Assembly (NCBI GenBank): GCA_964613935.1
Contig: CAZTIX010000001.1
Location: 1 to 30,496, forward strand
Direction of reading: 5' to 3'
From: an uncultured archaeon
Lineage (GTDB): Archaea; Altiarchaeota; Altiarchaeia; JAFGQM01
DNA: 30,496 bases
Shown here: piece by piece, positions 845 through 30,496 of the stretch
Layout: each line of letters opens with the position of its first letter
Numbering within the stretch: the stretch's first letter is position 1
Position numbers and translations under genes: made by a program
Notes under the pieces: generated by a model
What the model was told of the DNA's origin: nothing
The model's database searches: none
The model's input: the letters and a program-made list of their open reading frames with translations, nothing else

Positions 845-1489
845 ATGCACAACACATTTCTCTTCGACATGGACGGAACCCTTGTAGACACCTTCGACCT
901 AATTCACGAATCGTTCAACGCCGCCCTCGCCGAGAACAAGAAGGGGCCCATTACCAAGGAGGACTTCGACAAGAAGCTTTTCGGGAAGCCGGTGGATTCG
1001 ACGGTGATGAGGCTCCTGCGGATATCCGACGACAGGGAGTACGGGAAGGTCGTGAGGGACTTCCGCACCCATTGGCTGCGCAACCTGCAAAAGGTCGAGG
1101 TTTTTAAGAATGTTCCTCTAACTTTAGAGCGGCTCAGGAAGAGGGGCCACAAGCTCGGGGTGGTTAGCACGTCGCCCCGCGGGGTGATATCCGAGACCCT
1201 TCGCCAGACGGGGATATACGACTACTTCGATGTCCTCATAGGAGAGGAGGACGCAAAGAGGAAGAAGCCCCATCAGGAGCCTGTGGTCAACGCGCTCAAG
1301 CTTCTGGGAGCGAAGCCGGAGGAGACGGTCTTCGTGGGCGACACGATATACGACGTGCAGGCGGGCAAGAGAGCGGGTTGCCACACGGTATTCCTTCTCA
1401 ACCCCTACAACGCCGGAGTCCTGGAGGAATCCGAGCCGGACAGAGTCATAAAAAACGTTTCCGAATTGCTGGAAAATGGCGGAACCTGA
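845..1489 (+). CDS. HAD-superfamily hydrolase (PpaX pyrophosphatase / phosphoglycolate phosphatase-like), 214 aa
   Basis: Motif I FDMDGTLVDT, motif II GVVST, motif III KKPHQEP and motif IV FVGDTIYDVQAG. It overlaps the aglB start by 14 nt. Confidence 0.92.
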   Translation: MHNTFLFDMDGTLVDTFDLIHESFNAALAENKKGPITKEDFDKKLFGKPVDSTVMRLLRISDDREYGKVVRDFRTHWLRNLQKVEVFKNVPLTLERLRKRGHKLGVVSTSPRGVISETLRQTGIYDYFDVLIGEEDAKRKKPHQEPVVNALKLLGAKPEETVFVGDTIYDVQAGKRAGCHTVFLLNPYNAGVLEESEPDRVIKNVSELLENGGT

Positions 1490-4400
1490 GAAAAAGCGCA
1501 AGGCTGCGAAGGAGAGGCTGCTGGACCCGGACGCCCTGTCGTCCTCGCCGCAGACCATAGCCCTGATAGCCCTTCTGCTTTTTCTCCTGCTTTGGAGCCT
1601 GTTTCCCAACGGACCCACCACGGTCATGCTGGCCGCGGTGATAATCGGAGCCACCGGGATAAACCTGTACCTGACCACCTCCGACCTTATGGAGTCCGTG
1701 AAGAGCAAGTGGAGCATCCTGCCGGCCGCAATCGGACTGCTTCTGCTGGCGGTGCTTCTCCAGTCTCCCGGGCAGATGCTGCTGATAATACTCCTGGCGT
1801 CTTACGTGGCCCTCTCCATGGCGGTGGCCCTGGGCTTCATAAAAATCCAGACCGCAATAATAATGGGTCTCCTTCTGACCGCGGTGCTCTTCCGGGCATA
1901 TCCTGCGATGCCGGGCTCGGGCAGCTCGGCCGGCCACCTCATATCTATGGACGACCCCTATTTCCACTACAAGCAGACCGAGCGCCTCTACGAGCTGGGC
2001 GACGTGCCTGACAAGGACCTGACGATCTACCCGCCCGACGGCAGGGGCGCACCCCAGAAGTTCCCCTATTACTACAACACCTACCTCGCGCTCCTGACCA
2101 GCAACACGGTGCGCGACGTCATGCTCCTTTATCCCGTTCTTATAGCCGCGTTCGGCGCAATCGCGATGTTCCTCTTCCTCCGGGAGCTCACCGGCGACTG
2201 GAAGAGCGGCATGCTGGGCGGTTTCTTCTTCGCCACAATGCCGGCGGTTCTCAGCAAGTCCGTGGCAGGGGCAGTGGAGGAGGACCTGATGGGGATGGTC
2301 CTGGGCATATTCTCGCTTTATCTCCTGGCCAAGGCCTTCCGCACTTCGGGGCGGGAGAATCTCAAATATTCCCTCCTGTCCGGAGTCGCCTTCTTCATAA
2401 CCCTGATAAGCTGGAAGGGGGTCATATTCCTCTACGCGGTACCCTTCACCGCGCTCGCAATCTACGCCCTGGCGGGCATAATACTCAAACACGACATGTG
2501 GAACACCACCCGCTCCGCCCTTCTCGCCGGGATAATCCCGGTGGCGGGCAACCTGCTGTTCATAAACCCCGGCAGGCTCGACCTCACCCAGCTTGCGCCC
2601 TACGGGGCCCTGCTGTTCATGGGGCTTTGGGCCGAGGTCATAAGGGTCAGGTTATGGAAGGGGGAGGACCGCAAGACCGCTCCGGAGAAGAGATTCATAT
2701 TCCCGCTGGCGATTCTGGTGACTGCGGCCTTGCTGGCCATGGCCGCCTTTGCGGGAGTCGACAGGATAGTCGACATCCCTCAGAGGACCTACGAGAATTT
2801 CGCCGGCACCGGGGCGACCAACTATCTCGTGGACAAGACCATATCCGAGCAGGCAGCGTTCTCGCGGGGAGACCTCCTTCAGCGCCTCTCCATAGGCTAC
2901 GGCCGCTACAACATCGCCGAGGTCCTCACCCTCCTGATGGCCGCCCTCCTGCCCCTGGCAATCCTCTACCACTTTTTCAAGAAGGACAAGGACCGCCTGT
3001 TCGACCTCCTCAGAGCATATCTGATAGGGCTGGTCTTCTTCCTGGTGGCCATGCAGTTCGTTTGGCTGGAGTCGCGCCTGGTATTCTCCCAGTCTCTGGG
3101 CTTCCTGCTCCTGGGCGCAATGGTGGGGCTGATACTGCCGTCGAGCCGCGAGGAGCTGCCCACCTGGAAGGTGATTCCGCTTCTGATAATAATAGTGCTC
3201 ATCCCGTTCTCTACCTTTTACCCGTACAAGGGCCTGGACGCATGGGGGGACAGCCAGAGGGTCTCCGGGGTGCACCCCGCATGGTTCCTGGGGGTCGAGT
3301 GGCTCGACGAGAACATAGAGCCCGGATACTACACCGGCAACGAATACATAAACGGCGATTTCGTCCTCACCTGGTGGGACTACGGCCACTTCATAACCGC
3401 GTTGTCCGACTCCACGGTCATCGCCGACCCGCTACAGGCAAACGAGGAGTACATAATGCGAACAGCCAGGTTCTTCTACAACACCACCTCGGAGAAAGAG
3501 GCGATTGGGTGGCTCATGGAGCAGCCGTGGAACCCCAGGGACGAGACGGGCGAGTACAAGGTCAGGTACATAATCTTGGACGACACCCTCATAAACAAGG
3601 CGTCGGCCCTGGCCTTCCTCGGCACCAACCACTACGAGTATCCCAACGGTTACACGGCGGTCGACGGAGTCTGCGAGGTGGGGCAGGTCTGCCAGAACGT
3701 GGAGAACGGGCTGGAGGCGAGGAGGGTGGACGGCGACTACGTCTGCGATCGGGGCGAGGTTTGCGTGAGGGACCAGAGGGCGAGGACCGAGAAGAGGAGG
3801 TGCTGCGAGCCCGACCCCGCCCAGTGCTGCAACATGTCGCTGAGCTACAAGGTAATAAACCAGAAGAACGGCTCCGCCAGGCTGATGAGGGGGCCGGGAA
3901 CGCCCGTCTACGGCAGGTACACTCTGGAGACGGGGGGCGCGGCCTGCAGGCCGGAGTACGTCACATCCACCGAGCCGGTCTTCGTGGTTGAAGGGGGCGA
4001 GAGGAGGACGGTCACCCGGCGCTTCCTGTACACCGGCTTCAGCGGACTGCCCTACGCCGACGGGGGCCAATATCCCGCCTTCCTCATCATGACCTACGAG
4101 GACGGCACCCAGAGCCTCAAGTTCATAAGCCGCGACTGCTCCACCAAGGACGCCGAAGAGGTCCTGGCCGGGGGCGCCGACCTGCTGAAGAATCTCGGCT
4201 ACGGAAGGAGCATAGGAGATGGCATAAGAGCGCCGCAGATATTCGTCCACGCCCCGAGCAGATGGATGGACAGCATGTTCACGGAGCTCTATCTGAAGGA
4301 CGCCGCGAACTTGCAGCATTTCGAGATAATCGAGGACGCCTTCACTCAGGAGACTTCCGACGGGAAAGCCAACGTGTACCCGGCGGTCAAAATTTACAGG

Positions 4401-5021
4401 ATAACCTACCCCGACAAGATTCCGGAAGCTCCCGGCGGGGAGGAAGAGGCCGTCTCGGAGGAGCAGGAGCCCCAGGAGCAAGAGCCGCCGGCCAGCACAG
4501 TCGACGATACCGGCGAATCCGGAGAGGGCAGCGGCGAGGAGAGCATCCCGAACATGACCTTCGACCGCTATGACCCGGAGCTGCGCGAGGAATACGGCCT
4601 GACGCACTTCCCGGCCATCGTCTGGAACTGCGAGTTCAAGAAGCCCGGCAAGATGTCCAACACGACCTTCGAAGAAGAGGCCCTCTACAAGCTGGCCTGC
4701 ATAATGAACGACGCCGAGCCCCAGGAGCTGTGCCTGTCCCATGAGATATTCTACGATGAGAATGCCGGCAAGGTGAGCACCACCGACCAGGACATAGACG
4801 ACATCCTCAATGGCATAGCCAGGATAGAGAACTCCACAGCCTGCGGCCCGGAGGGCAGCGTCACAACGGTCCAGGTCTTCTACCCGCAGACATGCGAGTC
4901 CTGCGCGGAGCAAAAGCCCCTGCTGGACAAGCTAGAGCAGGATTTCGGCGAGCATCTGGACATATCCTACTACTGCGTAGGCGGCGAGGATTATTGCGTT
5001 CCCCGCCTCGGGGGAGCCTAA
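1476..5021 (+). CDS. aglB: Oligosaccharyltransferase AglB/STT3 with an N-terminal TM extension, a Cys-rich insert and a C-terminal thioredoxin-like appendage, 1181 aa
   Basis: Many TM segments, EL1 motif SMDDPYFH, VEEDLMG, EL5 TISE (TIXE motif), WWDYG at about 3372-3386, ADP, a DK-type helix DDTLINK and the terminal VKIY strand. Confidence 0.96.
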   Translation: MAEPEKKRKAAKERLLDPDALSSSPQTIALIALLLFLLLWSLFPNGPTTVMLAAVIIGATGINLYLTTSDLMESVKSKWSILPAAIGLLLLAVLLQSPGQMLLIILLASYVALSMAVALGFIKIQTAIIMGLLLTAVLFRAYPAMPGSGSSAGHLISMDDPYFHYKQTERLYELGDVPDKDLTIYPPDGRGAPQKFPYYYNTYLALLTSNTVRDVMLLYPVLIAAFGAIAMFLFLRELTGDWKSGMLGGFFFATMPAVLSKSVAGAVEEDLMGMVLGIFSLYLLAKAFRTSGRENLKYSLLSGVAFFITLISWKGVIFLYAVPFTALAIYALAGIILKHDMWNTTRSALLAGIIPVAGNLLFINPGRLDLTQLAPYGALLFMGLWAEVIRVRLWKGEDRKTAPEKRFIFPLAILVTAALLAMAAFAGVDRIVDIPQRTYENFAGTGATNYLVDKTISEQAAFSRGDLLQRLSIGYGRYNIAEVLTLLMAALLPLAILYHFFKKDKDRLFDLLRAYLIGLVFFLVAMQFVWLESRLVFSQSLGFLLLGAMVGLILPSSREELPTWKVIPLLIIIVLIPFSTFYPYKGLDAWGDSQRVSGVHPAWFLGVEWLDENIEPGYYTGNEYINGDFVLTWWDYGHFITALSDSTVIADPLQANEEYIMRTARFFYNTTSEKEAIGWLMEQPWNPRDETGEYKVRYIILDDTLINKASALAFLGTNHYEYPNGYTAVDGVCEVGQVCQNVENGLEARRVDGDYVCDRGEVCVRDQRARTEKRRCCEPDPAQCCNMSLSYKVINQKNGSARLMRGPGTPVYGRYTLETGGAACRPEYVTSTEPVFVVEGGERRTVTRRFLYTGFSGLPYADGGQYPAFLIMTYEDGTQSLKFISRDCSTKDAEEVLAGGADLLKNLGYGRSIGDGIRAPQIFVHAPSRWMDSMFTELYLKDAANLQHFEIIEDAFTQETSDGKANVYPAVKIYRITYPDKIPEAPGGEEEAVSEEQEPQEQEPPASTVDDTGESGEGSGEESIPNMTFDRYDPELREEYGLTHFPAIVWNCEFKKPGKMSNTTFEEEALYKLACIMNDAEPQELCLSHEIFYDENAGKVSTTDQDIDDILNGIARIENSTACGPEGSVTTVQVFYPQTCESCAEQKPLLDKLEQDFGEHLDISYYCVGGEDYCVPRLGGA

Positions 5022-5026
5022 CGGTC

Positions 5027-5032
5027 TTTTTT
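5027..5032 (+). terminator. Possible archaeal oligo-T terminator after aglB
   Basis: A T6 tract starts 6 nt after the aglB stop codon in a GC-rich context. Confidence 0.3.
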
Positions 5033-5057
5033 AGACTCTATCGTAAAATTCTAGAAA

Positions 5058-6041
5058 ATGCTTCTCATACTCGCAGTTTCCCTGACGGCCTTTCTGGTGA
5101 CGGTCGCGACGGTCCCCGTCCTCATAAGGAAGTTCGCCGATGCGGGCATAACCGGCAAGGATGTCCACAAACCGGGCGAGCCGGAGGTGCCCGAGATGGG
5201 AGGCCTGTCGGTCGTGGCCGGCTTCGCTTCCGGCGTCCTGCTGGCGGTGGCCGCGACAACGCTCTTCGCCAGCCACCTGTTCAACGGCGGAGCGGGATTC
5301 GATTTGACCGGCCTGACCCAGCTATTCGCCGCCCTGAGCACCATACTGATAATAACGATTGTCGGCATATTCGACGACCTGGTCAAGATGCGGCAGAGCG
5401 TCAAGGCCGTGCTGCCCGTCTTCGCCTCGCTGCCCCTGGTGGCAATAGCGGCCGGGCACCCCTACATAACTCTCCCCCTGCTTGGAAGGGCCTACCTGCC
5501 GATAATCTACCCCCTGATACTCATACCCCTGGCGGTCGCGGTAGTCTCGAACCTCACCAACATGCTGGCGGGATTCAACGGCCTCGAGAGCGGCATGGGG
5601 CTGATGGCCTGCATATCCCTGGGAACTGTCGCGGCGTTCCGGGGGAGAGCCGACGCGGCGATACTCCTCCTGTCGATGTCGGGCGCCCTGCTGGCATTCG
5701 CGCTGTTCAACAAATTTCCGGCGCGCATACTCCCTGGAGATGTGGGCACACTCAGCATAGGGGCGTGCGTGGCGTCGTCCCTCATCATAGGCAACTTCGA
5801 GACGGCCGGTCTTCTGGTGATGTCGCCCTACATCCTGGATTTCCTCATAAAGGCCAGAAACGGATTCCCCAAGGAGATTGACCTAACCTCGCTGAAGGGG
5901 GGAAAGCTGACCGCTAAGAAGGCAGTGGGGCTTCCCAGCCTGATAATGAGGGCCACCGGCGGCATAGCGGAGACCCGGCTGGTGACCCTCCTGGTGGGCG
6001 CGGAGGCGGCCCTGGGAATACTGGCGGTGCTGATATGGTAG
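5058..6041 (+). CDS. aglH: UDP-GlcNAc:polyprenyl-phosphate GlcNAc-1-phosphate transferase (AglH/DPAGT1-like, MraY/PNPT family), 327 aa
   Basis: Polytopic membrane protein with GKDVHK, PEMGGL, GIFDD, NLTNMLAGFNGLE and PGDVG. The NMLAGFNGLE motif is of the GPT/DPAGT1 type. Confidence 0.9.
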   Translation: MLLILAVSLTAFLVTVATVPVLIRKFADAGITGKDVHKPGEPEVPEMGGLSVVAGFASGVLLAVAATTLFASHLFNGGAGFDLTGLTQLFAALSTILIITIVGIFDDLVKMRQSVKAVLPVFASLPLVAIAAGHPYITLPLLGRAYLPIIYPLILIPLAVAVVSNLTNMLAGFNGLESGMGLMACISLGTVAAFRGRADAAILLLSMSGALLAFALFNKFPARILPGDVGTLSIGACVASSLIIGNFETAGLLVMSPYILDFLIKARNGFPKEIDLTSLKGGKLTAKKAVGLPSLIMRATGGIAETRLVTLLVGAEAALGILAVLIW

Positions 6042-6964
6042 ATTTAGTCACGGGTGGTGCCGGATTCGTGGGCTCCAACCTCGTCGAGGGGCTGGAGAAA
6101 GCGATGATACTGGACGATTTTTCCACCGCCAACCGCTACAGCAGCGAGTTCGCCAGAGCCTCGGACGCCCGCGTAATCGAGGGCAGCGTTGCCGATTATG
6201 AGACGGTCAGAAAGGCTCTCGAGGGCGTGAGGACAGTATACCATCAGGCCGCGGTTCCGAGCGTCCCGAGGAGCGTCAAAAACCCCCTGGCGACCAATCG
6301 GGCAAACGCCGGCGGGACCGTAACCCTTCTCAAGGCGTGCGCGGACGCGGGGGTCGAGAGCGTGGTTTATGCCTCTTCCTCCTCCGTCTACGGAGACACC
6401 CCGACCCTGCCCAAGACCGAGGACATGAAGCCTCGGCCGAAGAGCCCCTACGCGGTGTCCAAGCTCGCCGGAGAGCACTACATGCGCGTGTTCGGCGAGC
6501 TCTACGGCCTCAAGACGGCTTCCCTGCGCTACTTCAACGTATTCGGACCCCGCCAGAACCCGGACTCGCAGTACTCCGCGGTCATACCGAGATTCGTCAA
6601 GGCGGCCCTGAGCGGGCAGCCCCTGACCGTCTATGGTGACGGGGAGCAGACCAGGGACTTCACCTACGTCAGGGACGTGGTCGAAGCGAACAAGAAAGCG
6701 GCCGGCAAGAGCGGCGTCTACAACATAAGCGGGGGCAAGCAGACGACCGTGAACGAGCTTGCCGAACTCGTGATATCGCTGACCGATTCCAGCTCCAAGA
6801 TAGAGCGTGCCGGCGAGCGCAAGGGAGATGTGAGGCATTCCCTGGGCGATATCTCCAAGGCCCGGAAGGGGCTGGGATGGAAGCCGAAGAACTCCCTCGA
6901 GGAAGGCCTCAAGGAGTATATAATGCGCTTCCCAAAAACTAAAACTAAACAACTAAAACGATGA
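6035..6964 (+). CDS. NAD-dependent epimerase, WbpP/TviC-like UDP-GlcNAc(A) 4-epimerase, 309 aa
   Basis: TGGAGFVG, SVPRSVKNP, ASSSSVYG, YAVSK (YxxxK), RYFNVFGPRQNP and QTRDFTY. Confidence 0.9.
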   Translation: MVDLVTGGAGFVGSNLVEGLEKAMILDDFSTANRYSSEFARASDARVIEGSVADYETVRKALEGVRTVYHQAAVPSVPRSVKNPLATNRANAGGTVTLLKACADAGVESVVYASSSSVYGDTPTLPKTEDMKPRPKSPYAVSKLAGEHYMRVFGELYGLKTASLRYFNVFGPRQNPDSQYSAVIPRFVKAALSGQPLTVYGDGEQTRDFTYVRDVVEANKKAAGKSGVYNISGGKQTTVNELAELVISLTDSSSKIERAGERKGDVRHSLGDISKARKGLGWKPKNSLEEGLKEYIMRFPKTKTKQLKR

Positions 6965-8238
6965 TAAAGAGGATATGCGTGGTGGGCCTGGGCTACGTGG
7001 GTCTTCCTACGGCCCTCGCCTTCGCGGAGGCGGGATACGAGGTCACGGGCGCGGACATAGACGGAGAGCGGATTAAGAATTTGGGCTCTGGAAAGTCTCC
7101 GATACCGGATGTAGTCTCGGACGCGCGAATAAGAAAGGCCGGCGTTTCCTACACCACCAACACCCCCGAAGCGGTCAGCGGCTCGGACGCCGTGCTCATA
7201 ACGGTTCCCACCCCCGTCACGAAGGACAAAAAACCGGACCTGCGCGCAGTGAAGGCCGCGGCAGAGTCGGTGGCGGAGGGCATGGGCGGGGGAAAGCTCG
7301 TGGTCCTGGAGAGCACGGTATACCCGGGAGCGACGGAGGAGATAGTGCAGAAGGCCATAGAGGAGAAGACCCGCCTCAGGGCCGGCAGGGACTTCGGACT
7401 GGCCTACTGCCCCGAGCGCTACAATCCGGGGGACAAGCGCCACACGATAGGCAGCATAGAGAGGGTGGTGGGGGCAATCAATCAAAAGTGGCTGGACGCC
7501 GCCGCCGAGATGTATTCAAAGATAACCAAGCAACCAATCCTCAAGGTCAGCAGCATCAGGACTGCCGAGGCGGCGAAGATAATCGAAAACACGCAAAGGG
7601 ACCTGAACATCGGATTGATGAATGAGCTGGCCCTGATTTTCGACCGCATGGGAATCGACACCCGCGAGGTGATAAGGGCCGCGGCCACCAAGTGGAACTT
7701 CCACCTCTACTGGCCCGGACCGGGCGTGGGCGGGCATTGCCTTCCCTGCGACCCCTACTATCTGGTTCACAAATCGCGCCAGTTGGGATTCGACCCCAAA
7801 CTGATAACCGCCGCCAGGGATGTCAACGACGCCATGGCGCAGCACATCGTCGAGCTGGCGGAGCGTGCGGCGGGGGGGCTTAAGGGCAGGAAGGTCACAG
7901 TACTAGGGGCCGCCTACAAGGGCAACGTGGGGGACGCCAGGGAAAGCCCGGCCCGCCGGATTTGTGCGCAGCTCGGCGGTAAGGGGGCCGATGTGTTCAT
8001 CTGCGACCCCTTGGTCAAAAAGGAAGACCTGGCCGGTTGGGATGCAAAACCCGCAGGCTACGTGAATTCCATCCAACAGTCGGACTGCGTCATAATTCAC
8101 TCGGACCACGATGCCTTCAAGGGCCTGGACCTCGACTTTTTGGCAGCCTCCATGAGAACGAAAGCCATCGTGGACACGCGCGGATTCATTGAGCCGGACG
8201 AGGCCCGAAAGAAGGGATTCAGGCTGGAGCGTATTTGA
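6961..8238 (+). CDS. UDP-N-acetylhexosamine 6-dehydrogenase (WbpO/TviB/WecC family), 425 aa
   Basis: VGLGYVGLP, VPTP, ESTVYPG, PERYNPG, KIIENTQRDLNI, catalytic GPGVGGHCLPCD and GDARESP. Confidence 0.93.
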   Translation: MIKRICVVGLGYVGLPTALAFAEAGYEVTGADIDGERIKNLGSGKSPIPDVVSDARIRKAGVSYTTNTPEAVSGSDAVLITVPTPVTKDKKPDLRAVKAAAESVAEGMGGGKLVVLESTVYPGATEEIVQKAIEEKTRLRAGRDFGLAYCPERYNPGDKRHTIGSIERVVGAINQKWLDAAAEMYSKITKQPILKVSSIRTAEAAKIIENTQRDLNIGLMNELALIFDRMGIDTREVIRAAATKWNFHLYWPGPGVGGHCLPCDPYYLVHKSRQLGFDPKLITAARDVNDAMAQHIVELAERAAGGLKGRKVTVLGAAYKGNVGDARESPARRICAQLGGKGADVFICDPLVKKEDLAGWDAKPAGYVNSIQQSDCVIIHSDHDAFKGLDLDFLAASMRTKAIVDTRGFIEPDEARKKGFRLERI

Positions 8239-8304
8239 TTTCCTAGCCCAGAACCGCTTCAAACCGCCTCCTCGTTTCTTATGCGCGCATTTTCTAATAA
8301 GACC

Positions 8305-9474
8305 ATGAGAATCCTCTTCGTTTCTACAGATTTTCCCTACTCCTCGGGAGAGGGCTCGGTCACCCAAGGCGGCGGCGGAGCGTGCGTCGCGCAGCTTGCC
8401 GGGGAGCTGGCCGGGCGGGGCCATGACATAGAGGTGGTCACCCGCATGGAGCCGGAGCTGAAGAGCGAGCTGTTCGACTTCCCAGTACACCGCACCAAGT
8501 TCTACGACCTAGGGTTTCGCGAGAGCAGGATAACCCACTACTTTCCCGCGACCAGAGAGGGCAAGCGGCTGCTGAAGGAGAAGAGCTTCGACCTCGTCCA
8601 CACCCACAACCCCACGGCCGGCATGACCGGCTGCAGTCTTTCCAAGAAGTTCGGTCTCCCTCACCTCATGACGCTCCACGGCCCCTGGGCCAGCGTCCGG
8701 CAGAGGCTCTACACCCGTGCCATCGCCCGCATAATAGAGGGGCGCGCCGTCAAGTGCGCAGACATGGTGAGCTGCGACTCCCGCGCCCTCAGGCGCGAAG
8801 TCCTTGAACGGTATTCCCCTCCCGAAGAGAAGGTCGTCGCCATACCCAACGCCGTGGACACGGAAAAGTTCAAACCTGCCAGAAGCAAGTCTCGGGCCAG
8901 GAAGGGGATAGGGCTGGACGCGGACGGTCCCTTGGCTCTGTACACCGGCCGGTTCGTCGAGGAGAAGGGCCTCCCTCATCTTCTGGAAGCGTTCAAGAGC
9001 GTAGAGGGCGCGCATCTTCTCCTGCTGGGCGGAGGCTTCGACGAGCATCTGGTGAAGGACTGGCTTGCGCGCAACGGGAGCATGGCCGGGCGAATATCCG
9101 TCATACCCTATCTGCCCTACGAGAAGATGCCGGCGGCCTACAACGCCTGCGACGTCTTCGTCCTCCCCACCCTCGCCGAGGGGATGAGCCGCTCAGTCAT
9201 GGAGGCGATGTCATGCGGCAGGCCGGTGGTGGCGACGGATGTCGGCGGGAATCCGGAGCTGGTTGAAAACGGGAAGACCGGCCTGCTGGTGGAGCCGAAG
9301 GATTCAGGCTCTCTCTCGAAGGCGCTGGAAAGACTCCTTCAGAACTCCGGATTGCGCACGGGCATGGGCAAGGCGGCGAGGAGCTTCGCCGTCCGGGAGC
9401 TGGGAGTGAAAAAGCGGGTTGACGGGTTTATCGGGCTTTACGAAGAACTCCTTAAAAAGAGCAAAGAAAAATGA
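8305..9474 (+). CDS. GT4 (GT-B) glycosyltransferase
   Basis: The start is placed at MRILFVS (8305; the track ORF begins at 8281). Motifs: VHTHN, PNAVD, GRFVEEKG, EGMSRSVMEAM (EX7E) and TDVGGNPE. Confidence 0.92.
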   Translation: MRILFVSTDFPYSSGEGSVTQGGGGACVAQLAGELAGRGHDIEVVTRMEPELKSELFDFPVHRTKFYDLGFRESRITHYFPATREGKRLLKEKSFDLVHTHNPTAGMTGCSLSKKFGLPHLMTLHGPWASVRQRLYTRAIARIIEGRAVKCADMVSCDSRALRREVLERYSPPEEKVVAIPNAVDTEKFKPARSKSRARKGIGLDADGPLALYTGRFVEEKGLPHLLEAFKSVEGAHLLLLGGGFDEHLVKDWLARNGSMAGRISVIPYLPYEKMPAAYNACDVFVLPTLAEGMSRSVMEAMSCGRPVVATDVGGNPELVENGKTGLLVEPKDSGSLSKALERLLQNSGLRTGMGKAARSFAVRELGVKKRVDGFIGLYEELLKKSKEK

Positions 9475-12639: not shown

Positions 12640-12672
12640 ATTACCGCTTATTTGCCTTTTTCTTCACTTAAA

Positions 12673-12682: not shown

Positions 12683-12700
12683 CTAAAGATATCTGGCAGG

Positions 12701-18835: not shown

Positions 18836-18841
18836 TTGGCC

Positions 18842-19777: not shown

Positions 19778-19794
19778 TTCCAGAACCCAAAGTC

Positions 19795-22419: not shown

Positions 22420-22427
22420 TTTTTATA
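22420..22427 (+). promoter_or_regulatory. Putative TATA box (TTTTTATA) for the RHH-cysD-cysN operon
   Basis: Good archaeal TATA match in the 252-nt divergent intergenic region. A second TTTTTAT lies at 22393-22399. Confidence 0.45.
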
Positions 22428-22443
22428 GGCTCTATCCGAATAT

Positions 22444-22472
22444 ACACTCCAATAACACTCCAAATAGAGTGT
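22444..22472. repeat. ACACTC triple repeat (two direct, one inverted), candidate operator
   Basis: ACACTC at 22444-22449 and 22455-22460 (11-nt period; ACACTCCAA is repeated) and GAGTGT at 22467-22472, ending 10 nt before the RHH ATG. Confidence 0.6.
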
Positions 22473-22482
22473 CACGGCGAGA

Positions 22483-22698
22483 ATGACTGAAAAAGTCACC
22501 CTGAAAATTCCAAAGAACCTCTACAGGAAACTCAAGAGGCGGATAAGCGGCACTGGATTCAGCTCCGTCACGGAATTCGTTGTTTTTGTGATGAGGTCGG
22601 TTGCCTCCGCCCAGGCGGTTGAAGGCAGAGAGGACCTGACCGAAGAGGAAATAAGTCTGGTGCGAGAGAGGCTCAGACGCCTCGGCTACCTTGATTAA
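22483..22698 (+). CDS. Ribbon-helix-helix (CopG-family) protein with a C-terminal ERLRRLGYLD tail, 71 aa
   Basis: Strand KVTLKIP, helix KNLYRKLKRRI, turn GTGFSS and helix VTEFVVFVMR, then an acidic EEE linker and the LxxLGY tail. Confidence 0.85.
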   Translation: MTEKVTLKIPKNLYRKLKRRISGTGFSSVTEFVVFVMRSVASAQAVEGREDLTEEEISLVRERLRRLGYLD

Positions 22699-22742
22699 GA
22701 TTGACCCAAATGGAACCTGAGCTAGGGAAGCACTGCGTGGGC

Positions 22743-23540
22743 ATGAGCCATCTGGATGAGCTGGAGAGCAAGAGCGTCTTCATAATCCGGGAGGCCTACA
22801 AGCAGTTCAAGAACATAGCGATGCTGTGGTCCATCGGAAAGGATTCCAGCTGCCTCCTCTGGCTAGTCAGAAAGGCCTTCTACGGCCGCATACCCTTTCC
22901 TGTCATACACATAGACACCGGCTACCAGATACCCAAGATGATAGAATGGCGCGACAAGTACGCCAAGAAGTGGAACCTCAACCTGATAATCTCCCAGAAC
23001 AAGGAGGCCCTGGAGCGAGGCATGAACAACAAGAGCAAGCTGGCCTGCTGCACGGCTCTCAAGACCGACGCCCTGAAGCAGACGTTGGACGAGCACAAAT
23101 TTAGAGCTCTGCTGCTGGGAATCCGAAGGGACGAGCACGGTGTTAGGGCGAAGGAGAGGGTCTTCTCCCCCCGCAATCAGGACTTCAAGTGGGACTACAA
23201 GAACCAACCCCCCGAGCTCTGGGACCAGTACAAGGCCAAGGCCGAGGAGAAGGAGCACATCAGGGTCCACCCCCTCCTGCACTGGACCGAGGTCGACGTC
23301 TGGGAGTACATAAAGCGTGAGAGCATACCCCTCATACCCCTTTACTTCGCCAAGGACGGGAAGCGCTACCGGAGCCTGGGATGCGAGTGTTGCTGCGCCC
23401 CGGTGGACTCGGACGCAGACACAATCGACAAGGTCATAGGCGAGCTGAAGATGACTCGCCAGGGCGAGAGGGACGGCCGGGCCCAGGACAAGGAGGAGGC
23501 GAACGCAATGCAGAAGCTGAGGGCACTGGGCTACATGTGA
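22743..23540 (+). CDS. cysD: Sulfate adenylyltransferase subunit 2 (ATP sulfurylase small subunit)
   Basis: LDELESKSVFIIREA, PP-loop WSIGKDS, HIDTG, GIRRDE...RAKER, RVHPLLHWTE, RYRSLGC, ERDGRAQD and terminal LRALGYM. The start may instead be ATG 22710. Confidence 0.95.
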   Translation: MSHLDELESKSVFIIREAYKQFKNIAMLWSIGKDSSCLLWLVRKAFYGRIPFPVIHIDTGYQIPKMIEWRDKYAKKWNLNLIISQNKEALERGMNNKSKLACCTALKTDALKQTLDEHKFRALLLGIRRDEHGVRAKERVFSPRNQDFKWDYKNQPPELWDQYKAKAEEKEHIRVHPLLHWTEVDVWEYIKRESIPLIPLYFAKDGKRYRSLGCECCCAPVDSDADTIDKVIGELKMTRQGERDGRAQDKEEANAMQKLRALGYM

Positions 23541-23550: not shown

Positions 23551-24783
23551 ATGGAGGCAAGCGAGGAGTATCTTAGGCTGGTAATCGTAGGGCACGTGGA
23601 CCACGGGAAGTCGACGCTGATAGGCCGGCTTCTCTACGATACCGGCTCGCTTCCAGAGGGCAAGATAGAGGAGATAAAGAGCATCTGCAACGCCCTGGGC
23701 AAGGAGCTGGAGTTCGGCTATGTCATGGACAACCTAGAGGAGGAAAGAGACCAGAGCGTGACCATCGACACCGCCCAGATATTCTTCAAGACTGACAAGC
23801 GCCACTATGTGATAATCGACGCCCCCGGCCACGTGGAGTTTGTCAAGAACATGGTGACGGGCGCGTCCCAGGCCGAGGCGGCCGTCCTCATAGTTGACGC
23901 CGAGGAGGGGGTTCAGGAGCAGACCCGGCGCCATGCCTACATCCTCGGCATGCTCGGCCTGAAGCAGGTCGCGGTCGTGGTTAACAAGATGGACCTGGTC
24001 GGCTACTCCGAGGAGCGGTTCGACGAGGTTTCAAAGGACCTCAGGCAATTTCTGGGGAAAATAGGCATAGACCCCACCTACGTAATCCCCATATCCGCTC
24101 GCGAGGGCGATTTCGTGGCGGGGAAGACCGGCAGCATGCCCTGGCACGACGGCCCCACTGTCTTGGAGGCGCTCGATTCCTTCAAGCCTCGCGAGCCCCG
24201 CATGAGCAAGCCGCTGAGGTTCTCGGCGCAGGACGTCTACAAGCGGGACAAGCGGATAATCGTGGGCCGCGTGGAGAGCGGGACGCTCCGAAAGGGGGAG
24301 GAAGTCCTGGTGCTTCCTTCCGGAGAGAAGACCTCCGTCAGGAGCATCGAGGAGTGGCTCAAGGACGACGTCAGGGAGGCGGTGGCCGGCAAGGCCACGG
24401 GCCTCACTACCGAGGACAAGCTCTTCATAGACCGGGGCGACGTGCTGTGCGACCCCAAGAAACCGCCCACAGTGACCGACCGGTTTGAGGCGCAGCTTTT
24501 CTGGATGGACAAGGCCCCTCTGAAGAAGGGGGAGAGGATAATACTGAAATGCTCCACCCAGAAGGCCGTGTGCGAGGTCGAGGAGTTCAAGAGAGTGCTG
24601 GACTCCTCCACCCTGCGGGAGCTGGAGGGCAAAGAAGAGCTGGGCAACCGGGAGGTGGCCGATGCGGTGATAAAGACCGACAAGCCCATAGTCATCGAGG
24701 ATTTCAACAAGACGGAGGAGCTGGGCCGGTTCGTCCTGGAGCGGCTCAACACCTGCGCGGGGGGGATAATAACCGGAGCATGA
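23551..24783 (+). CDS. cysN: Sulfate adenylyltransferase subunit 1 (EF-Tu-like GTPase) without a fused APS-kinase domain, 410 aa
   Basis: GHVDHGKSTLIGRLLYDT, EERDQSVTID, DAPGH, MVTGASQA, QTRRH, NKMD, PISA and a terminal GRFVL...AGGII. It directly follows cysD. Confidence 0.95.
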   Translation: MEASEEYLRLVIVGHVDHGKSTLIGRLLYDTGSLPEGKIEEIKSICNALGKELEFGYVMDNLEEERDQSVTIDTAQIFFKTDKRHYVIIDAPGHVEFVKNMVTGASQAEAAVLIVDAEEGVQEQTRRHAYILGMLGLKQVAVVVNKMDLVGYSEERFDEVSKDLRQFLGKIGIDPTYVIPISAREGDFVAGKTGSMPWHDGPTVLEALDSFKPREPRMSKPLRFSAQDVYKRDKRIIVGRVESGTLRKGEEVLVLPSGEKTSVRSIEEWLKDDVREAVAGKATGLTTEDKLFIDRGDVLCDPKKPPTVTDRFEAQLFWMDKAPLKKGERIILKCSTQKAVCEVEEFKRVLDSSTLRELEGKEELGNREVADAVIKTDKPIVIEDFNKTEELGRFVLERLNTCAGGIITGA

Positions 24784-24811: not shown

Positions 24812-25534
24812 ATGATCGCCGTCTACGCCATAGACGCCCTGGAGTTCAACAGGGTCGAGAAGTACGACACCAAGAATCTCAAGCAGGAGCACTACGGCAA
24901 GACCGACATAAGCGAGTTCTCCCAACCGCGCACCATGGTCCTTTGGAGCTCCTTCATGACCGGGGAGAACAAGGAGAAGGAGATTCTGGCCAAGGGCGAC
25001 AAGGAGATGTGGAACACCCGGATACCCCTTGAGAAGACCTTCTTCTCGCAGTTCGACAGCCCGAAAATCCTGGACCTGCCCGGCTACAACTACGACCTGG
25101 GGGTCCACGAGAAGTCCAGGAAACTGCTCAAGTCGTTCTTCGATGCGAAGAGCGACGCGGAGAAGGAGCGCATAAGAAAGGAGTACAACAAGGACGCCTT
25201 CGAGCACCACAAAACGGTCAGGAAGCGCTTCCTCGGGGCGCTCGGAGAGGACCGCGATTTCGTCCTGGGCTATTTCAGCGTTGCCGACGTGGTGGGACAC
25301 CTCAACTTCGGCAACGACCTGATGATGAAGATGATATACCGGGAGCTGGACGAGCTGGCGGCGAAGGTCAGGGAAACGGCCGACCGCGTCTTGGTTCTGT
25401 CGGACCACGGTATGAAGGCCATCGGCAGATTCGGCGACCATTCCGGATACGGCTTCTGGAGCACGAACTGGGATGCGGGGCTGGACAGCCCCAGAATTAC
25501 CGACATGAAGGACTCGATACTCGCATTGAAATAG
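24812..25534 (+). CDS. Minimal AP-superfamily protein (core fold only), 240 aa
   Basis: AIDALE, QPRTMVLWSSFMTG (predicted nucleophile Thr41), ADVVGH, LSDHG and GDHS. Confidence 0.8.
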   Translation: MIAVYAIDALEFNRVEKYDTKNLKQEHYGKTDISEFSQPRTMVLWSSFMTGENKEKEILAKGDKEMWNTRIPLEKTFFSQFDSPKILDLPGYNYDLGVHEKSRKLLKSFFDAKSDAEKERIRKEYNKDAFEHHKTVRKRFLGALGEDRDFVLGYFSVADVVGHLNFGNDLMMKMIYRELDELAAKVRETADRVLVLSDHGMKAIGRFGDHSGYGFWSTNWDAGLDSPRITDMKDSILALK

Positions 25535-25536
25535 CC

Positions 25537-26232
25537 ATGAGTCTTGAGAGAGTTAAGAGCGCCTACCGGGAGACCTATGAATCCAGAGGCCTGGACGACA
25601 TCGAGAAGAGAATAGATTCTCGCATAAAGCGCAAAAGGAGCAGACGCGCACTTTTCATCTTGCGGGAGCGCCTGGAGAATCTGGAGGAAAAAAAGGTCCT
25701 CGCGGTGGGCTGCGGAAAGGGAGAGCTCATAGTGACTTTCGGTCTCGAGGACATAGACATTTGCGGCGTCACGCCAGACCGGGGCGAGATAGAGGTGGCC
25801 GAATCCTGGCAGAGCCACTATGGACTGGAGAACAGGGCGGTTGAGGGGCGCGGAGAAGACCTCCCCTTTCCCGACGAATCCTTCGACTTGGTGATAGCCC
25901 ATGACGTCCTCGAGCACGTCCAGGACATGGAGAAGACGGTCAGCGAGATGGCCAGGGTGGCTAAAAGGGGCGGACACCTCTACATCCGGGCTCCCAACTA
26001 CCGGAAGCCCAGGGAGGGCCATTACGATCTGTTCTGGATTCCATTCATGCCGAAAGCGCTCGGCCGGCTCTACCTGCGTCTTTTGGGCAGGCCTACCTGT
26101 TTCCTGAACACAATCCACTACACCTCTCCCGGGAAAGTCCGGAAGAGCCTGGAAAAGCACGATTTAACAGTCTTTCCTCTAAATAAAGCGGGGTTTTTCT
26201 CACCCATCGAGCTGCTAGCCAGGAAGGACTGA
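25537..26232 (+). CDS. Class I SAM-dependent methyltransferase, 231 aa
   Basis: VLAVGCGKG, GEDLPFPDESFDLV, DVLEHV, RVAKRGG and PN...EGHY. Confidence 0.88.
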   Translation: MSLERVKSAYRETYESRGLDDIEKRIDSRIKRKRSRRALFILRERLENLEEKKVLAVGCGKGELIVTFGLEDIDICGVTPDRGEIEVAESWQSHYGLENRAVEGRGEDLPFPDESFDLVIAHDVLEHVQDMEKTVSEMARVAKRGGHLYIRAPNYRKPREGHYDLFWIPFMPKALGRLYLRLLGRPTCFLNTIHYTSPGKVRKSLEKHDLTVFPLNKAGFFSPIELLARKD

Positions 26233-27369: not shown

Positions 27370-28743
27370 ATGGCGACTTTCCTGAGGAGGGCATCATCCG
27401 GGCTGGCTTACGTGTCGGGAGGCAATCTCCTGGGGGCAGTCATCTCGTTTCTGGTGACCGTAACGCTCGCTCAGGCCTTGGGAGTGAAGGACTACGGCCT
27501 GATGCTGCTGGCCCTGTCCATCCCCTCGGCCATGGTGGTTTTCACCGAGTGGGGCCTGAGTAGCCTGCTCTCTGCGGATATAGCCGCCTACCGGCCGAAA
27601 GGCGAGCTGTCCAAAATAAAGAAACTCCTCAAGCAGACCCTCTTCATCAAGGTGGCAATCTCCCTTTCGCTGATGGCTCTGCTCTTCCTGATAAGCGACA
27701 GCGTAATCCCTCAGTTCTACAGCGCGCGCGTTTCCAGCCTGGTGAAGATAGTGGCCCTGATGCTGCCCCTCAACGTGCTCGAGGAGCAGCTGAGGGTGAT
27801 ATTCATAGGGTTTTCCAAGTTCAATGGCATAGCTTGGATGCGTATCTTCCAGCCCATCTTCCGGCTCTCCCTGCTAATTTTGTTCCTCCAAATGGCCACA
27901 CTCGACCTCATCACCGCAACACTCCTCTACCCACTTTCCCTTCTATTGTCCTCCCTATTGGTAATTCCGCTCCTGATAGGCGTTTTTCGAAAGCTGCGGA
28001 GCGTCGCATCCTCGAAGGAAAACGTGCTTAAGGAGACCATAAAGGAGCACGGGAAATATGCGATTATGATAGTCCCCGTCAAGAAGGGCATAGACAACCT
28101 GCCCCTATGGCTAGCCGGCTTCTTACTGGGTGCCCCCGCCGCGGCTTTGTTCGGCCTGGCCAACAAGTTCTACGGATTCATATCCCTGGCGGTGAAATCC
28201 ATCGAGCAAGTCTTCCTGCCTCTGATGGCCGAGCAGACTGTGAAGGGCATACAGCGCCTGGTCCTCCTCTTTAAGAAGGGACTCAAGTTCGGCTTTTTGC
28301 TCTCCCTGGTCGCGGTGGCGGCGTCCATCCCGCTTCTACCCGTTGTGATAGAAGGCCTCTCCCTCGACAAGTACGTGGCCGCAATACCCATAGCCCAAGT
28401 CCTAATGCTGAACATGATAAGGTGGTTCTCTTTCATGACGGTCAGGCCTATACTCGTGTCGACAAAGAACCAGAAATACCTGTTCCTGTTTTATCTCTCG
28501 AAGCTTGCGATACTTTCCTCTTTTGGCTATGTCTTCCTAATGCTCATGGGCCACCCGATAGGGCTTGCCTGGGCCACCATCCTTACAGGAATACTCCTGA
28601 CCGTAATACATTATTGGATACTTTTGAAAATAGACAAAGCATTCGCCGTGAACATTCGCCGCGACCTTCTGACGATAGACGAAAAGGACAAGAGCATATA
28701 CCGGCGGTCCATGAAGCAAATCAGGGCGCGGCTAGGATTCTAG
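27370..28743 (+). CDS. Wzx/AglR-like oligosaccharide flippase (polysaccharide biosynthesis family), 457 aa
   Basis: About 12 hydrophobic segments, [11 protein letters not shown] near the N-terminus, and a mid-protein D...L...L...ALFGLA pattern typical of Wzx/MOP exporters. Confidence 0.85.
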
Positions 28744-29667
28744 CTGCTCTTTGATCCAGTCGGCCGTTTTCCTGAGTCCGTCTTCCAAACCCACCTTCGG
28801 CTCCCATCCTAGCGCCTTCTTTGCCTTGGATATGTCCGGCTGCCTGGTCTTGGGGTCGTCGGTCGGGAGCGGCTTGCGGACAATACCGCTCCCGGAGCCG
28901 GTGACATCCAGAACAAGCTCTGCGAACTCCGCTATGGCCAGCTCATGCGGGTTGCCCAGGTTGACCGGGCCGTTCTCGTCCGAGAGCAGGAGACGATATA
29001 AACCTTCCACCATGTCGGATATGTAGCAGAAGCTCCGGGTCTGGCTACCCTCTCCGTAGACCGTCAGCGGTTCTCCGGTGAGGGCCTGCTTCAGGAAGTT
29101 GGGCACCACCCTCCCGTCGTCCATCCTCATCCCCGGGCCGTATGTGTTGAAGATGCGCGCTATCCTGGTGTCGATTCCGTGGACCCTGCGATAAGCCATG
29201 ACGAGGGCCTCGGCAAACCTCTTGGCCTCGTCGTAAACCCCCCTCGGACCTATCGGGTTGACGTTTCCCCAGTAGCTCTCCGGCTGCGGGCTCACCTGGG
29301 GGTCGCCGTAGACCTCGGACGTGGACGCCAGCAGGAATCTGGCTTTCTTGGCCTTCGCCAGCCCCAGGGCGTTGTGCGTCCCAAGGCTCCCCACCTTGAG
29401 GGTCTGTATCGGCATCTCCAGATAATCCACCGGACTGGCCGGGGAAGCGAAATGCAGGACCGCGTCCAGCCCTCCCCCAACCTCTATGAACTCGGTGACG
29501 TCGTGGTCGACGAACTCGAAGTCCGGGTTGTCCTGGAGTCGCTTGATGTTTTTGGAGGTCCCTGTGGAGAGGTTGTCCATGCAGATTACGCCGTGCCCCT
29601 CCCGAAGCAGCCGCTCGCAAAGGTGGCTCCCAAGGAAACCGGCCCCCCCGGTTATTAAAATTCTCAT
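28732..29667 (-). CDS. uxs: UDP-glucuronate decarboxylase (UDP-xylose synthase), 311 aa
   Basis: [63 protein letters not shown] and [10 protein letters not shown] are diagnostic UXS motifs. Confidence 0.93.
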
Positions 29668-30496
29668 CTTAAGTTTTCCAGAGTTTTCAGGTATTCCCTC
29701 AATTCTTCTGAAAGGTCCTCCCTCTCGAGCGCGAAGTCCACCGTCGCTCTCAGGTAATCCGGCTTGTCGCCGATGTCGTATCTGTCTCCCTCGAACTCCA
29801 TGGCGTAGACCTTCTCCTCTATCAGCAGCTTCTCGAGACCGTCGGTCAGCTGTATCTCGCCGCCCTTGCCCGGCTCGGTGGCCTCGAGAGCCTCGAATAT
29901 CCCCGGGGTGAGTATGTATCTCCCTATTATGCCCAAGTCCGAAGGCGCATCGCCGGGCTCGGGCTTCTCCACAAGCTTCTCAATCTCCAGAACTCCGTCG
30001 CCCGCTTTTTTGCCTCCCACTATGCCGTACTTGCCCAACTCTTTCCCGGCGACCTTTTCCACGGCCAGCACGCTGGCCCGCCGCCTTTCAAACAGCTCCG
30101 CCAGCTGCTTGGTGCACGGGACTTTGTTGCGCACGATTGTGTCGCCCAGCAGCACGGCGAAGGGTTCTTCCCCGATGTGCTTACTGGCGCAGAGTATGGC
30201 GTGCCCCAACCCGAGGGGCTCCTTCTGCCGGACGTAGTGCACGTCCCCCAAATCAGAGATTTTGCGCACCTCTCTCAGAAGTTCTTTCTTCCCCGAGCGC
30301 TCCAGATGCTTCTCCAACTCGACGTTATAGTCAAAGTAGTCCTCTATGGCCCGCTTTCCCCGGCCAGTTATTATCAGGATGTCGTCTATGCCCGACTCCA
30401 CGGCCTCCTCCACCACGTAGTGGATGGCCGGTTTGTCCACTATGGGCAGCATCTCCTTCGGCTGGGACTTGGTGGCCGGCAAGAATCTCGTCCCCA
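29664..30496 (-). CDS. galU: UTP--glucose-1-phosphate uridylyltransferase, partial (start lies beyond the window end)
   Basis: The frame stays open to the window edge as [17 protein letters not shown], so the track's TTG start is really Leu. Further motifs: [33 protein letters not shown] and YDIG. Confidence 0.96.

Follow-up and report, generated by a model that had tools for sequence, protein, structure and literature searches.

A candidate sulfate activation and transfer cassette in a probable N-glycan assembly locus of an archaeon

Sulfated N-glycans were the first prokaryotic N-glycans to be described. Which donor supplies their sulfate, and which enzymes pass it on, is the question raised by a 30,496-nucleotide stretch from an uncultured archaeon of the Altiarchaeota (contig CAZTIX010000001.1, positions 1 to 30,496 of the forward strand; "the window" below), in which the oligosaccharyltransferase AglB is encoded together with the ATP sulfurylase subunits CysD and CysN (CysDN) and four proteins of the alkaline phosphatase (AP) superfamily. 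Part of an answer comes from Halobacterium salinarum, where two AP-fold, sulfatase-like proteins encoded in the aglB cluster, Agl30 (VNG1056C, membrane) and Agl31 (VNG1057C, soluble), are needed for N-glycan sulfation, and each of them sulfates the glycan of Haloferax volcanii when introduced there; deletion of a third AP-fold paralogue, VNG1063H, has no phenotype (Zaretsky et al., mBio 2025; PMC11980604). Neither donor nor mechanism is given in that study, where the words PAPS, donor, formylglycine, threonine and nucleophile do not occur, so the donor route remains as unclear as the original prediction for this locus had held (PMC11980604).

On balance, the window is best read as an N-glycan assembly locus with a cytoplasmic sulfation branch, an interpretation that we hold with slightly better than even confidence. 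CysDN would make adenosine 5'-phosphosulfate (APS), AP-fold enzymes with a threonine nucleophile would pass the sulfuryl group to the lipid-linked glycan, and flipping and transfer by AglB would follow. From gene content we infer that sulfation occurs, that APS rather than 3'-phosphoadenosine 5'-phosphosulfate (PAPS) is the donor, what the 240-residue AP protein (AP240) and a shared C-terminal tail do, and that the glycan is N-linked. The type of locus is already known, and the idea of AP-fold sulfotransferases has been published for haloarchaea. What appear to be undescribed are the activation and transfer cassette, its exclusivity with APS kinase, the shared tail and the conserved operator; a literature search found no description of such a cassette.

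The CysDN-AP240 cassette and its recurrence

Open reading frames (ORFs) of the window were scanned against Pfam and NCBIfam, and transmembrane (TM) segments were located by hydropathy. The features that bear on sulfation are these (RHH, ribbon-helix-helix; NPP, nucleotide pyrophosphatase/phosphodiesterase):

14980-16410, +: AP476, soluble NPP-type protein of the AP superfamily, candidate position-specific sulfotransferase; Phosphodiest 1.8e-36, no TM segment, motif PPVTAPNW
17255-18595, +: AP446, soluble sulfatase-family protein, candidate Agl31-like sulfotransferase; Sulfatase (PF00884) 4.2e-42, motif T-P-P-S-H
18638-18835, +: RHH1, 65-residue RHH-like protein with acidic linker and tail KERLADLGYMD; its stop codon abuts the AP313 start
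18836-19777, +: AP313, divergent sulfatase-like AP protein (ILDACRYD ... ITSDHGELLGEHG); Sulfatase (PF00884) only 6e-4, below cut-off
22419-22472, +: candidate promoter/operator region, with TATA-like box CTTTTTATAGG (22419-22429), half-site ACACTCCAA (22444-22452) and palindrome ACACTCCAAATAGAGTGT (22455-22472)
22483-22698, +: RHH2, 71-residue RHH-like protein with tail RERLRRLGYLD, 2 nt upstream of cysD
22701-23540, +: CysD, catalytic subunit of ATP sulfurylase; NF003587 362.7 bits against a cut-off of 195, PDB 1ZUN 3.5e-67; ends MQKLRALGYM
23551-24783, +: CysN, GTPase subunit, 410 residues, without a CysC domain; TIGR02034 361.9 bits against 336.1
24812-25534, +: AP240, minimal NPP-like AP-fold enzyme; Phosphodiest 1.6e-7

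The gap between cysD and cysN is 10 nt, and both proteins score above curated cut-offs, which identifies the pair as CysDN; by family membership it would produce APS. The cassette probably supplies sulfate and transfers it to the glycan.

A scan for CysD over one genome per GTDB species yielded 51 loci, within which APS kinase and other genes were sought. The closest CysD loci (65-83% identity) belong to uncultured archaea labelled Woesearchaeota, Nanoarchaeota, Thermoplasmata, Bathyarchaeia and 'Methanosarcinales', plus some bacteria of the Candidate Phyla Radiation (CPR). Seventeen of the 51 have a homologue of AP240 (40-73% identity) after CysD-CysN; most of these are archaeal, usually with glycan genes around the cassette. 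In 23 of the 51, small proteins with the C-terminus [KR]-L-[KR]-x-L-G-Y-[LIM] (the LGY tail) border the operon, between one and three per locus and typically immediately upstream of cysD. Loci without AP240 have a larger NPP-type AP protein, or one of 254 residues, beside CysDN. The core also occurs in a Woesearchaeota chromosome (CP070803.1, 919 kb), an Altiarchaeota metagenome-assembled genome (MAG), MSBL1 and a sediment contig, and the cassette lies inside glycan clusters of MAGs labelled DPANN and CPR. The original prediction had staked its case on a module of aglB, cysDN, AP and RHH-LGY genes recurring elsewhere. Because cysDN, AP and RHH-LGY genes are found together in other genomes, that part holds; their combination with aglB was not met again in the 51 CysD loci, nor in the AglB relatives, whose downstream 10 kb were compared.

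Two relatives illustrate the arrangement. In the syntenic locus L052, the order is family 4 glycosyltransferases (GT4s), a short-chain dehydrogenase/reductase (SDR), GT4s, a Fer4-FrhB-pyruvyltransferase fusion, a 70-residue ORF, CysD, CysN, AP240 and a methyltransferase. Methanothrix harundinacea has pyruvyltransferase, GPT (the initiating transferase), SDR, Wzz, a 70-residue ORF, CysD, TauE, CysN, AP240, a second 70-residue ORF, a sulfatase-like protein, a flippase and glycosyltransferases. The TauE/SafE-family anion transporter between cysD and cysN in this species (L054/L055, 7451-8293) is a candidate sulfate importer. The MSBL1 CysD (L058, 6617-8755) contains an intein, with Intein_splicing and LAGLIDADG matches inside PAPS_reduct, and a 680-residue CysD ORF in L050 (9989-12031) may resemble it.

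APS kinase was found in 17 of the 51 loci, mostly as alphaproteobacterial cysNC, and never with AP240 or a small LGY protein; the hypergeometric p values, 1.6e-4 for AP240 and 1.5e-6 for the small LGY proteins, are confounded by phylogeny. APS kinase is missing from the window and from within 10 kb of each of the 25 AP240 loci that were read, and the same holds for APS/PAPS reductase and sulfite reductase. The Pfam family APS_kinase is not matched in any archaeal context read, and Sulfotransfer_1-5 are matched neither by window ORFs nor in related contexts, including the bacterial locus L061 discussed below. AP240 is adjacent to CysN in every context read, and its conservation is nearly that of CysN. 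Because of this conservation, its place right after cysN and its exclusivity with APS kinase, AP240 is the best candidate for the consumer of APS; it occupies the genomic slot that APS kinase has in assimilatory cysDNC operons.

Threonine-type AP proteins and the sulfate donor

The nucleophile position is occupied by Thr in AP476, AP446, AP313 and AP240, none of which contains the formylglycine motif C/S-x-P-x-R; AP446 has T-P-P-S-H where sulfatases of the PDB align that motif. No TM segments were found in the four AP proteins, the deacetylase or the methyltransferase, and no signal peptides in the decorating enzymes, which are therefore predicted to be cytoplasmic, where APS is available. Recent duplication of the four AP proteins was considered and rejected, as pairwise BLAST finds them mutually very divergent. 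AP446 has weak NCBIfam matches to EptA and LtaS; a haloarchaeal homologue (P0073) is 37% identical to it, and its best homologue (P0002, 39% identity) adjoins CysD-CysN-AP240. AP476 homologues adjoin CysDN in many loci, and AP313 has a 33% identical homologue with a fused LGYF tail in L053.

Could these proteins be ordinary hydrolases (sulfatases, phosphodiesterases, phosphatases) or phospho-transferases, placed by chance beside an assimilatory CysDN? Pfam and NCBIfam do name them sulfatase and phosphodiesterase, and the known Thr-nucleophile AP enzymes (EptA, LtaS, NPP) transfer phosphoryl groups. However, no cysH, sir or cysC is nearby, the cassette sits within the DPANN- and CPR-labelled glycan clusters mentioned above, the AP proteins are predicted to be cytoplasmic, and AP446 lacks the formylglycine motif that sulfatases need. 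Distant taxa moreover share the association of AP-fold genes with CysDN or Sat, and Agl30 and Agl31 set a genetic precedent. We consider this reading highly improbable. The suggestion made in the original prediction, that Thr-type AP-fold proteins may act as sulfotransferases, gains by analogy from that published precedent (PMC11980604), and AP476, AP446 and AP313 would be position-specific transferases comparable with Agl30 and Agl31.

AP240 is very highly conserved. A word-indexed search gave 571 homologues; the best 120 of these are 232-259 residues long, are 59-75% identical across several archaeal groups and, where named, are called 'alkaline phosphatase family protein' or 'hypothetical'. 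Residues D8, R40-T41, H99, R103, K107, N126, H132-H133, D159/H163, D198-H199 and D209-H210 are invariant, so that the Thr and the full bimetal ligand set (D8, T41, D159/H163, D198/H199, D209/H210) are retained in all 33 sequences aligned. The basic residues around the Thr/metal site (R40, H99, R103, K107, H132, H133) would fit a polyanionic nucleotide such as APS. The AlphaFold2 (AF2) model (pLDDT 95.9) is a pared-down AP core, and its nearest PDB folds are ENPP4/5/6 and Xac NPP (E ~3e-5). Because the TM-scores are 0.45-0.55 and identity is 12-16%, this relationship is distant; a profile search of PDB sequences with AP240 returned nothing significant.

In the likeliest chemistry, APS would sulfate the threonine (PAPS could do so instead if the genome encodes an APS kinase elsewhere), and from this covalent sulfo-Thr intermediate the AP enzymes would hand the sulfuryl group on to hydroxyls of sugars, much as EptA/LtaS-type transferases work through phospho-Thr. 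In its strongest form, the cassette would be a PAPS-independent machine: Thr41 of AP240 takes the sulfuryl group from APS and passes it to sugars or to the larger AP transferases, and KxRLRxLGY helices on CysD, the small RHH-like proteins and the transferases hold them in a channeling complex. This version is put forward tentatively, as one that may well be wrong.

Several observations weigh against the sulfation branch as proposed here. AP-superfamily enzymes are mostly hydrolases, and to our knowledge no APS-dependent AP-fold sulfotransferase has been characterized. The exclusivity of AP240 and APS kinase sets archaea against alphaproteobacteria and is thus confounded by phylogeny, an APS kinase may be encoded elsewhere in the genome of the window, and about half of the AP240 loci have no other AP enzyme within 10 kb. 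The identity of AP240 across archaeal groups suits a universal small-molecule substrate better than variable glycans. Furthermore, the preference for APS over PAPS in the original prediction is undercut by a homologous bacterial cluster (L061; Chloroflexota MAG JALYSK010000133, 1022-14275), a polysaccharide operon with Sat instead of CysN. Its order is flippase, APH-like kinase, DHH/DHHA1, Sat, Phosphodiest, APS kinase with an LGY tail, Phosphodiest, sulfatase-like protein with an LGY tail, Wzz and GT2. Here AP families, AP476 homologues among them, stand beside an APS kinase and a DHH protein resembling phosphatases of 3'-phosphoadenosine 5'-phosphate (pAp), which points to PAPS in that operon. 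Archaeal CysDN has been interpreted as assimilatory, and some archaea that carry it also have cysC (PMC6286981).

These data define a PAPS-dependent alternative, in which the large AP proteins use PAPS from an APS kinase encoded outside the window and AP240 is an accessory hydrolase that drives the unfavourable CysDN reaction forward or clears pyrophosphate, AMP or pAp. The archaeal cysC genes speak for it, and so does L061, in which these AP families accompany Sat, APS kinase and a DHH phosphatase; the very high conservation of AP240 and its NPP-like character, the NPP family being one that cleaves nucleotide pyrophosphate bonds, are further points in its favour. The lack of APS kinase in the window and within 10 kb of the AP240 loci read speaks against it. 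Moreover, AP240 comes after cysN, just where cysNC fusions have CysC, and in many loci it is the one AP-fold enzyme near CysDN, where some protein has to use up the APS. We regard the PAPS-dependent alternative as unlikely, though it deserves serious weight.

The LGY tail, the RHH-like proteins and the candidate operator

What might hold a sulfate-activating enzyme and its acceptor enzymes together? In the window, tails of the form [KR]L[KR]xLGY[LIM] end CysD (23511-23540), RHH1 (18803-18835) and RHH2 (22666-22698); one such tail peptide is EEKVKERLRALGYLD. CysD proteins of this clade end almost invariably in AMQKLRALGYM, and CysD of Pseudomonas syringae (PDB 1ZUN) ends in EEKKRQGY in an alignment that stops one residue before the chain end. 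Of the 4061 raw ORFs in the loci, 95 fit the tail regular expression, against a chance expectation of ~0.1, itself a rough estimate from approximate residue frequencies. AF2 predicts the tail as a separate amphipathic helix behind a disordered linker.

The same tail, preceded by an acidic stretch, is found on 57 of the top 120 homologues of AP446; bacterial proteins are among them, as is a haloarchaeal 'sulfatase' that has a Thr nucleophile motif. Relatives have it fused to AP313-like (L053), AP446-like (L001) and AP476-like (L001) proteins, and in L061 it ends the APS kinase. The AP476-like enzyme of L001 (12225-13802) goes further: its last 65 residues match the whole RHH1-like module, tail included (36% identity). 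By homology, this fusion is a Rosetta-stone link between the small RHH1-type proteins and the AP enzymes.

The tail is probably a docking helix, to judge from its distribution and predicted structure, that gathers its bearers on a common partner, for which CysN and an AP-fold protein are candidates. CysN is attractive as receptor because CysD carries the tail. As sole receptor it is weakened because tails occur in clusters without CysN: L061 has tailed sulfatase-like proteins and a tailed APS kinase beside Sat, and in L060, L062 and L092 tails occur with no sulfate activation nearby, a distribution that also counts against the sulfation reading. An APS kinase structure ending in LMELGYL (PDB 7YQ0), for which a literature search turned up no article, was set aside, as its match is weak (11 bits) and may be a native C-terminal helix.

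A search with a profile built from RHH1 and RHH2 gave 1611 cluster representatives (E <=1e-3), most of them 63-110 residues long; the family includes a 109-residue subtype with two RHH-like repeats. In the AF2 model of RHH2, a strand and two helices are followed by a disordered linker and the tail helix, a topology compatible with RHH. Foldseek lists the RHH proteins CdbA, VapB, FitA, ParD and PrpA first, all with E >1, and Pfam matches only RHH1, below threshold (CopG_antitoxin 0.0048, RHH_5 0.11), as are matches in NCBIfam and PDB. The RHH assignment thus stays below statistical significance, a weakness of the regulatory reading.

The 252-nt intergenic stretch between the pyruvyltransferase fusion and RHH2 holds the palindrome ACACTCCAAATAGAGTGT (ACACTCC-N5-GAGTGT) 10 nt upstream of the RHH2 start codon ATG; none of 100 shuffles gave a match, and a further half-site and a TATA-like box precede it. 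M. harundinacea has the same palindrome, ACACTCCAAACGGAGTGT, directly before the orthologous RHH gene (L054/L055, 6401-6418). It was found nowhere else in the 90 loci (1.16 Mb), and the other 88 lack it. The regulator and operator proposed in the original prediction thereby receive support, and the conserved palindrome supports RHH2 as a candidate autoregulator of the sulfation operon, which would repress from the palindrome before its own gene. RHH1-type proteins, which follow AP240 or are fused to AP enzymes, may instead be adaptors.

The aglB core, the glycan island and known systems

The remaining features of the window are the following (HAD, haloacid dehalogenase):

1-764, -: ABCE1/Rli, N-terminal 254 residues (Fe-S and first ABC domain), cut by the window start; homologues named RLI; flanking housekeeping gene
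845-1489, +: HAD-family phosphatase, PpaX/phosphoglycolate-phosphatase-like; HAD_2 2.5e-45, PpaX 149.5 bits, under cut-off; 14 nt overlap with the aglB start
1476-5021, +: AglB oligosaccharyltransferase, 1181 residues; STT3 64.1 bits plus AglB core, WWDYG
5058-6041, +: GPT, polyprenyl/dolichyl-phosphate HexNAc-1-phosphate transferase, initiating enzyme; Glycos_transf_4 2.9e-33, ~9 TM segments
6035-6964, +: SDR sugar-nucleotide epimerase, TviC-like (UDP-HexNAcA 4-epimerase-like); Epimerase 3.2e-63, TviC 7e-66, under cut-off
6961-8238, +: NDP-sugar 6-dehydrogenase (UDP-ManNAc/UDP-GlcNAc dehydrogenase-like), uronic acid supply; TIGR03026 422 bits against 189.8
8281-9474, +: GT4 a; Pfam Glycos_transf_1, Glyco_transf_4
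9471-10598, +: GT4 b; Pfam
10544-11713, +: GT4 c; Pfam; real start probably the ATG at 10595, from the N-terminal sequence
11710-12639, -: SDR epimerase, GalE-like; Epimerase 4.5e-66, GalE 188 bits, under cut-off
12605-13819, +: GT4 d; Pfam
13756-14919, +: GT4 e; Pfam; real start probably near 13816
16467-17258, +: polysaccharide (N-)deacetylase, soluble; Polysacc_deac_1 3.6e-24
19795-22230, -: fusion of 2x[4Fe-4S] ferredoxin, FrhB-like flavin/F420-binding and polysaccharide pyruvyltransferase domains, 811 residues; Pfam; GC 0.50
25537-26232, +: S-adenosylmethionine-dependent methyltransferase; Methyltransf_11 6.4e-21; also after AP240 in L052 and L053
26235-27368, +: GT4 f; Pfam
27370-28743, +: Wzx/MOP-type flippase (Polysacc_synt); 1.2e-14, ~12-14 TM segments
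28732-29667, -: SDR, dTDP-glucose dehydratase/UDP-xylose-synthase-like (UXS/RmlB-like); GDP_Man_Dehyd 5.2e-53, NCBIfam
29664-30496, -: GalU, UTP-glucose-1-phosphate uridylyltransferase; TIGR01099 346.1 bits against 326.8; N-terminus cut by the window end

All components listed in the original prediction, from initiation to AglB, are found where it had placed them by the Pfam and NCBIfam scans, and the gene families bear out its aglB-anchored glycan assembly locus and archaeal host. Most cytosolic window proteins have K+R > D+E, which is consistent with a host that is not a halophile, as had also been proposed. The description of the locus as self-contained was overstated: genes for sulfate transport, APS kinase, dolichol synthesis and UDP-GlcNAc synthesis were not found in the window. 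There is also no tRNA in it. ORF 204-824 (+) is spurious because it is antisense to the real ABCE1 gene and has no family match; like ORF 178-735 (-), which also overlaps ABCE1 in another frame and lacks family matches, it is a high-GC artefact.

As far as genes can be compared, the window is a lineage-conserved aglB core (ABCE1, HAD-AglB-GPT-SDR) joined to a variable glycan island. AglB matches STT3 (PF02516) at 64.1 bits against a gathering score of 24.5. It has MDDPYFHY in its first loop, WWDYG at residues 633-637 and ~13-14 TM segments, with ~14 hydrophobic stretches ahead of residue 590, and its C-terminal domain is large, acidic and rich in Cys; it does not reach the archaeosortase-A-associated subfamily TIGR04154 (110 bits against 450). 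A metagenome scan with AglB gave five relatives (L063-L067; 45-62% identity) that share the gene string ABCE1(-)-HAD-AglB-GPT-SDR1 (window 1-6964). In L063-L065, ABCE1 keeps its position at 73-76% identity and a 60-65% identical HAD phosphatase lies beside aglB; GPT (54-72%) is beside aglB in L064-L067. The best named archaeal matches of ABCE1 (~50-55% identity) come from several phyla; one further fragment is 73% identical. The next 10 kb of the AglB relatives have no detectable similarity to the GT4s or AP genes of the window, and it is because this downstream stretch differs that the core and island are distinguished.

The island itself may have exchanged parts. GC content falls to 0.50-0.55 across RHH1-AP313-pyruvyltransferase-RHH2 (18638-22698), against ~0.60 elsewhere in the window, and the pyruvyltransferase is only 39% identical to its L052 counterpart, against 82% for CysD. 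This suggests replacement or exchange of a cassette. The Fer4-FrhB-pyruvyltransferase fusion also lies directly upstream of RHH-cysD in L052 (5088-7553); its redox half might convert an enolpyruvyl or ketal adduct to a reduced product such as a lactyl ether.

A variable island leaves room for a sulfated surface polymer that is not N-linked (capsule, exopolysaccharide, sheath or O-linked glycan), with aglB a mere neighbour. Wzz and Wzx-type genes accompany the cassette in M. harundinacea and L061, and the AglB relatives differ in downstream gene content. None of the 51 CysD-selected loci has AglB, and linkage of aglB with cysDN is seen in this window only, which counts against N-linkage; the flanks read in the AglB relatives are shorter than 17.7 kb, the distance from aglB to cysD in the window. 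On the other side, Pfam scans found neither a Wzy polymerase nor a Wzz chain-length regulator in the window. GPT, six glycosyltransferases, one flippase and AglB, with all but four genes on one strand and short or overlapping junctions, moreover form the standard agl layout. A polymer without N-linkage is therefore judged improbable.

On the N-glycan reading, GPT would place HexNAc-1-phosphate on dolichyl phosphate and the six GT4s would extend the glycan on the cytoplasmic face, with UDP-sugars from GalU, the TviB/TviC-like pair and the two further SDRs. Soluble enzymes would decorate the lipid-linked glycan by N-deacetylation, O-methylation, pyruvylation (the Fe-S/FrhB fusion) and O-sulfation. 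The Wzx-type flippase would then export it, and AglB would transfer it to Asn of surface proteins.

The locus and its relatives tie AP-fold proteins to a dedicated sulfate-activation operon and to two large uncharacterised families, AP240 and RHH-LGY, and they make the sulfate donor of archaeal glycan sulfation testable. Archaeal cysDN, so far read as assimilatory, would be recast as glycan-sulfation genes in many uncultured archaea; surface glycans that carry sulfate would then be common far outside the halophiles. If the PAPS-independent version were true, it would name the missing donor for Agl30 and Agl31. Biology would then have a third kind of sulfotransferase chemistry, one overlooked until now and spread widely through archaea and MAGs labelled DPANN or CPR.

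How does the window compare with known systems? By published description, Agl30 and Agl31 are likewise AP-superfamily, sulfatase-like proteins of an aglB-anchored cluster; Agl31 is soluble like the AP proteins of the window, several paralogues occur in both, and they act on the dolichol-linked glycan, the stage proposed here. They differ in the halophilic host and the membrane-bound Agl30, and no cysDN, AP240 or RHH-LGY partners are mentioned (PMC11980604); the window adds the sulfate-activation operon and the conserved 240-residue AP enzyme. Other sulfur-bearing archaeal N-glycans also have dedicated genes within a glycan cluster: the low-salt pathway Agl5-Agl15 of Hfx. volcanii, where Agl7 is needed for sulfation of the glycan (PMC3892788), and Sulfolobus Agl3, a UDP-sulfoquinovose synthase (PMC8674786). 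Agl3 forms a C-S bond from sulfite at the nucleotide-sugar stage; an Agl3-like route was rejected for the window, where three SDRs reach 41.9-47.3 bits against a cut-off of 575.

CysD-CysN(C)/NodPQ, the assimilatory and Nod-factor activation system that serves the PAPS-dependent sulfotransferases NodH and Stf, resembles the cassette in its GTP-coupled heterodimeric CysDN and in an APS consumer encoded after, or fused to, CysN, and there too activation can be dedicated to glycoconjugate sulfation. In contrast, the slot after CysN in the window holds an AP-fold enzyme rather than APS kinase, no Sulfotransfer-family protein is present, and CysD ends in KLRALGYM where the other system has KKRQGYF. 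EptA/MCR, LtaS, OpgB and NPP share the bimetal AP core and the Thr nucleophile; a covalent Thr intermediate and transfer onto a glycoconjugate would be further common features. However, they move phospho-groups from lipids or nucleotides and have membrane-anchored, extracytoplasmic catalytic domains, whereas the AP proteins of the window are small, soluble, predicted to be cytoplasmic and genomically tied to sulfate activation. The small proteins recall ParD, FitA, VapB, CdbA and CopG, with a putative RHH module at the N-terminus, a flexible linker, a terminal helix that may bind a partner, and a palindrome in the promoter of their own gene through which they would autoregulate. Unlike those antitoxin systems, to which the matches are below significance, the window has no toxin gene, and the motif of the C-terminal helix is common to CysD and AP enzymes.

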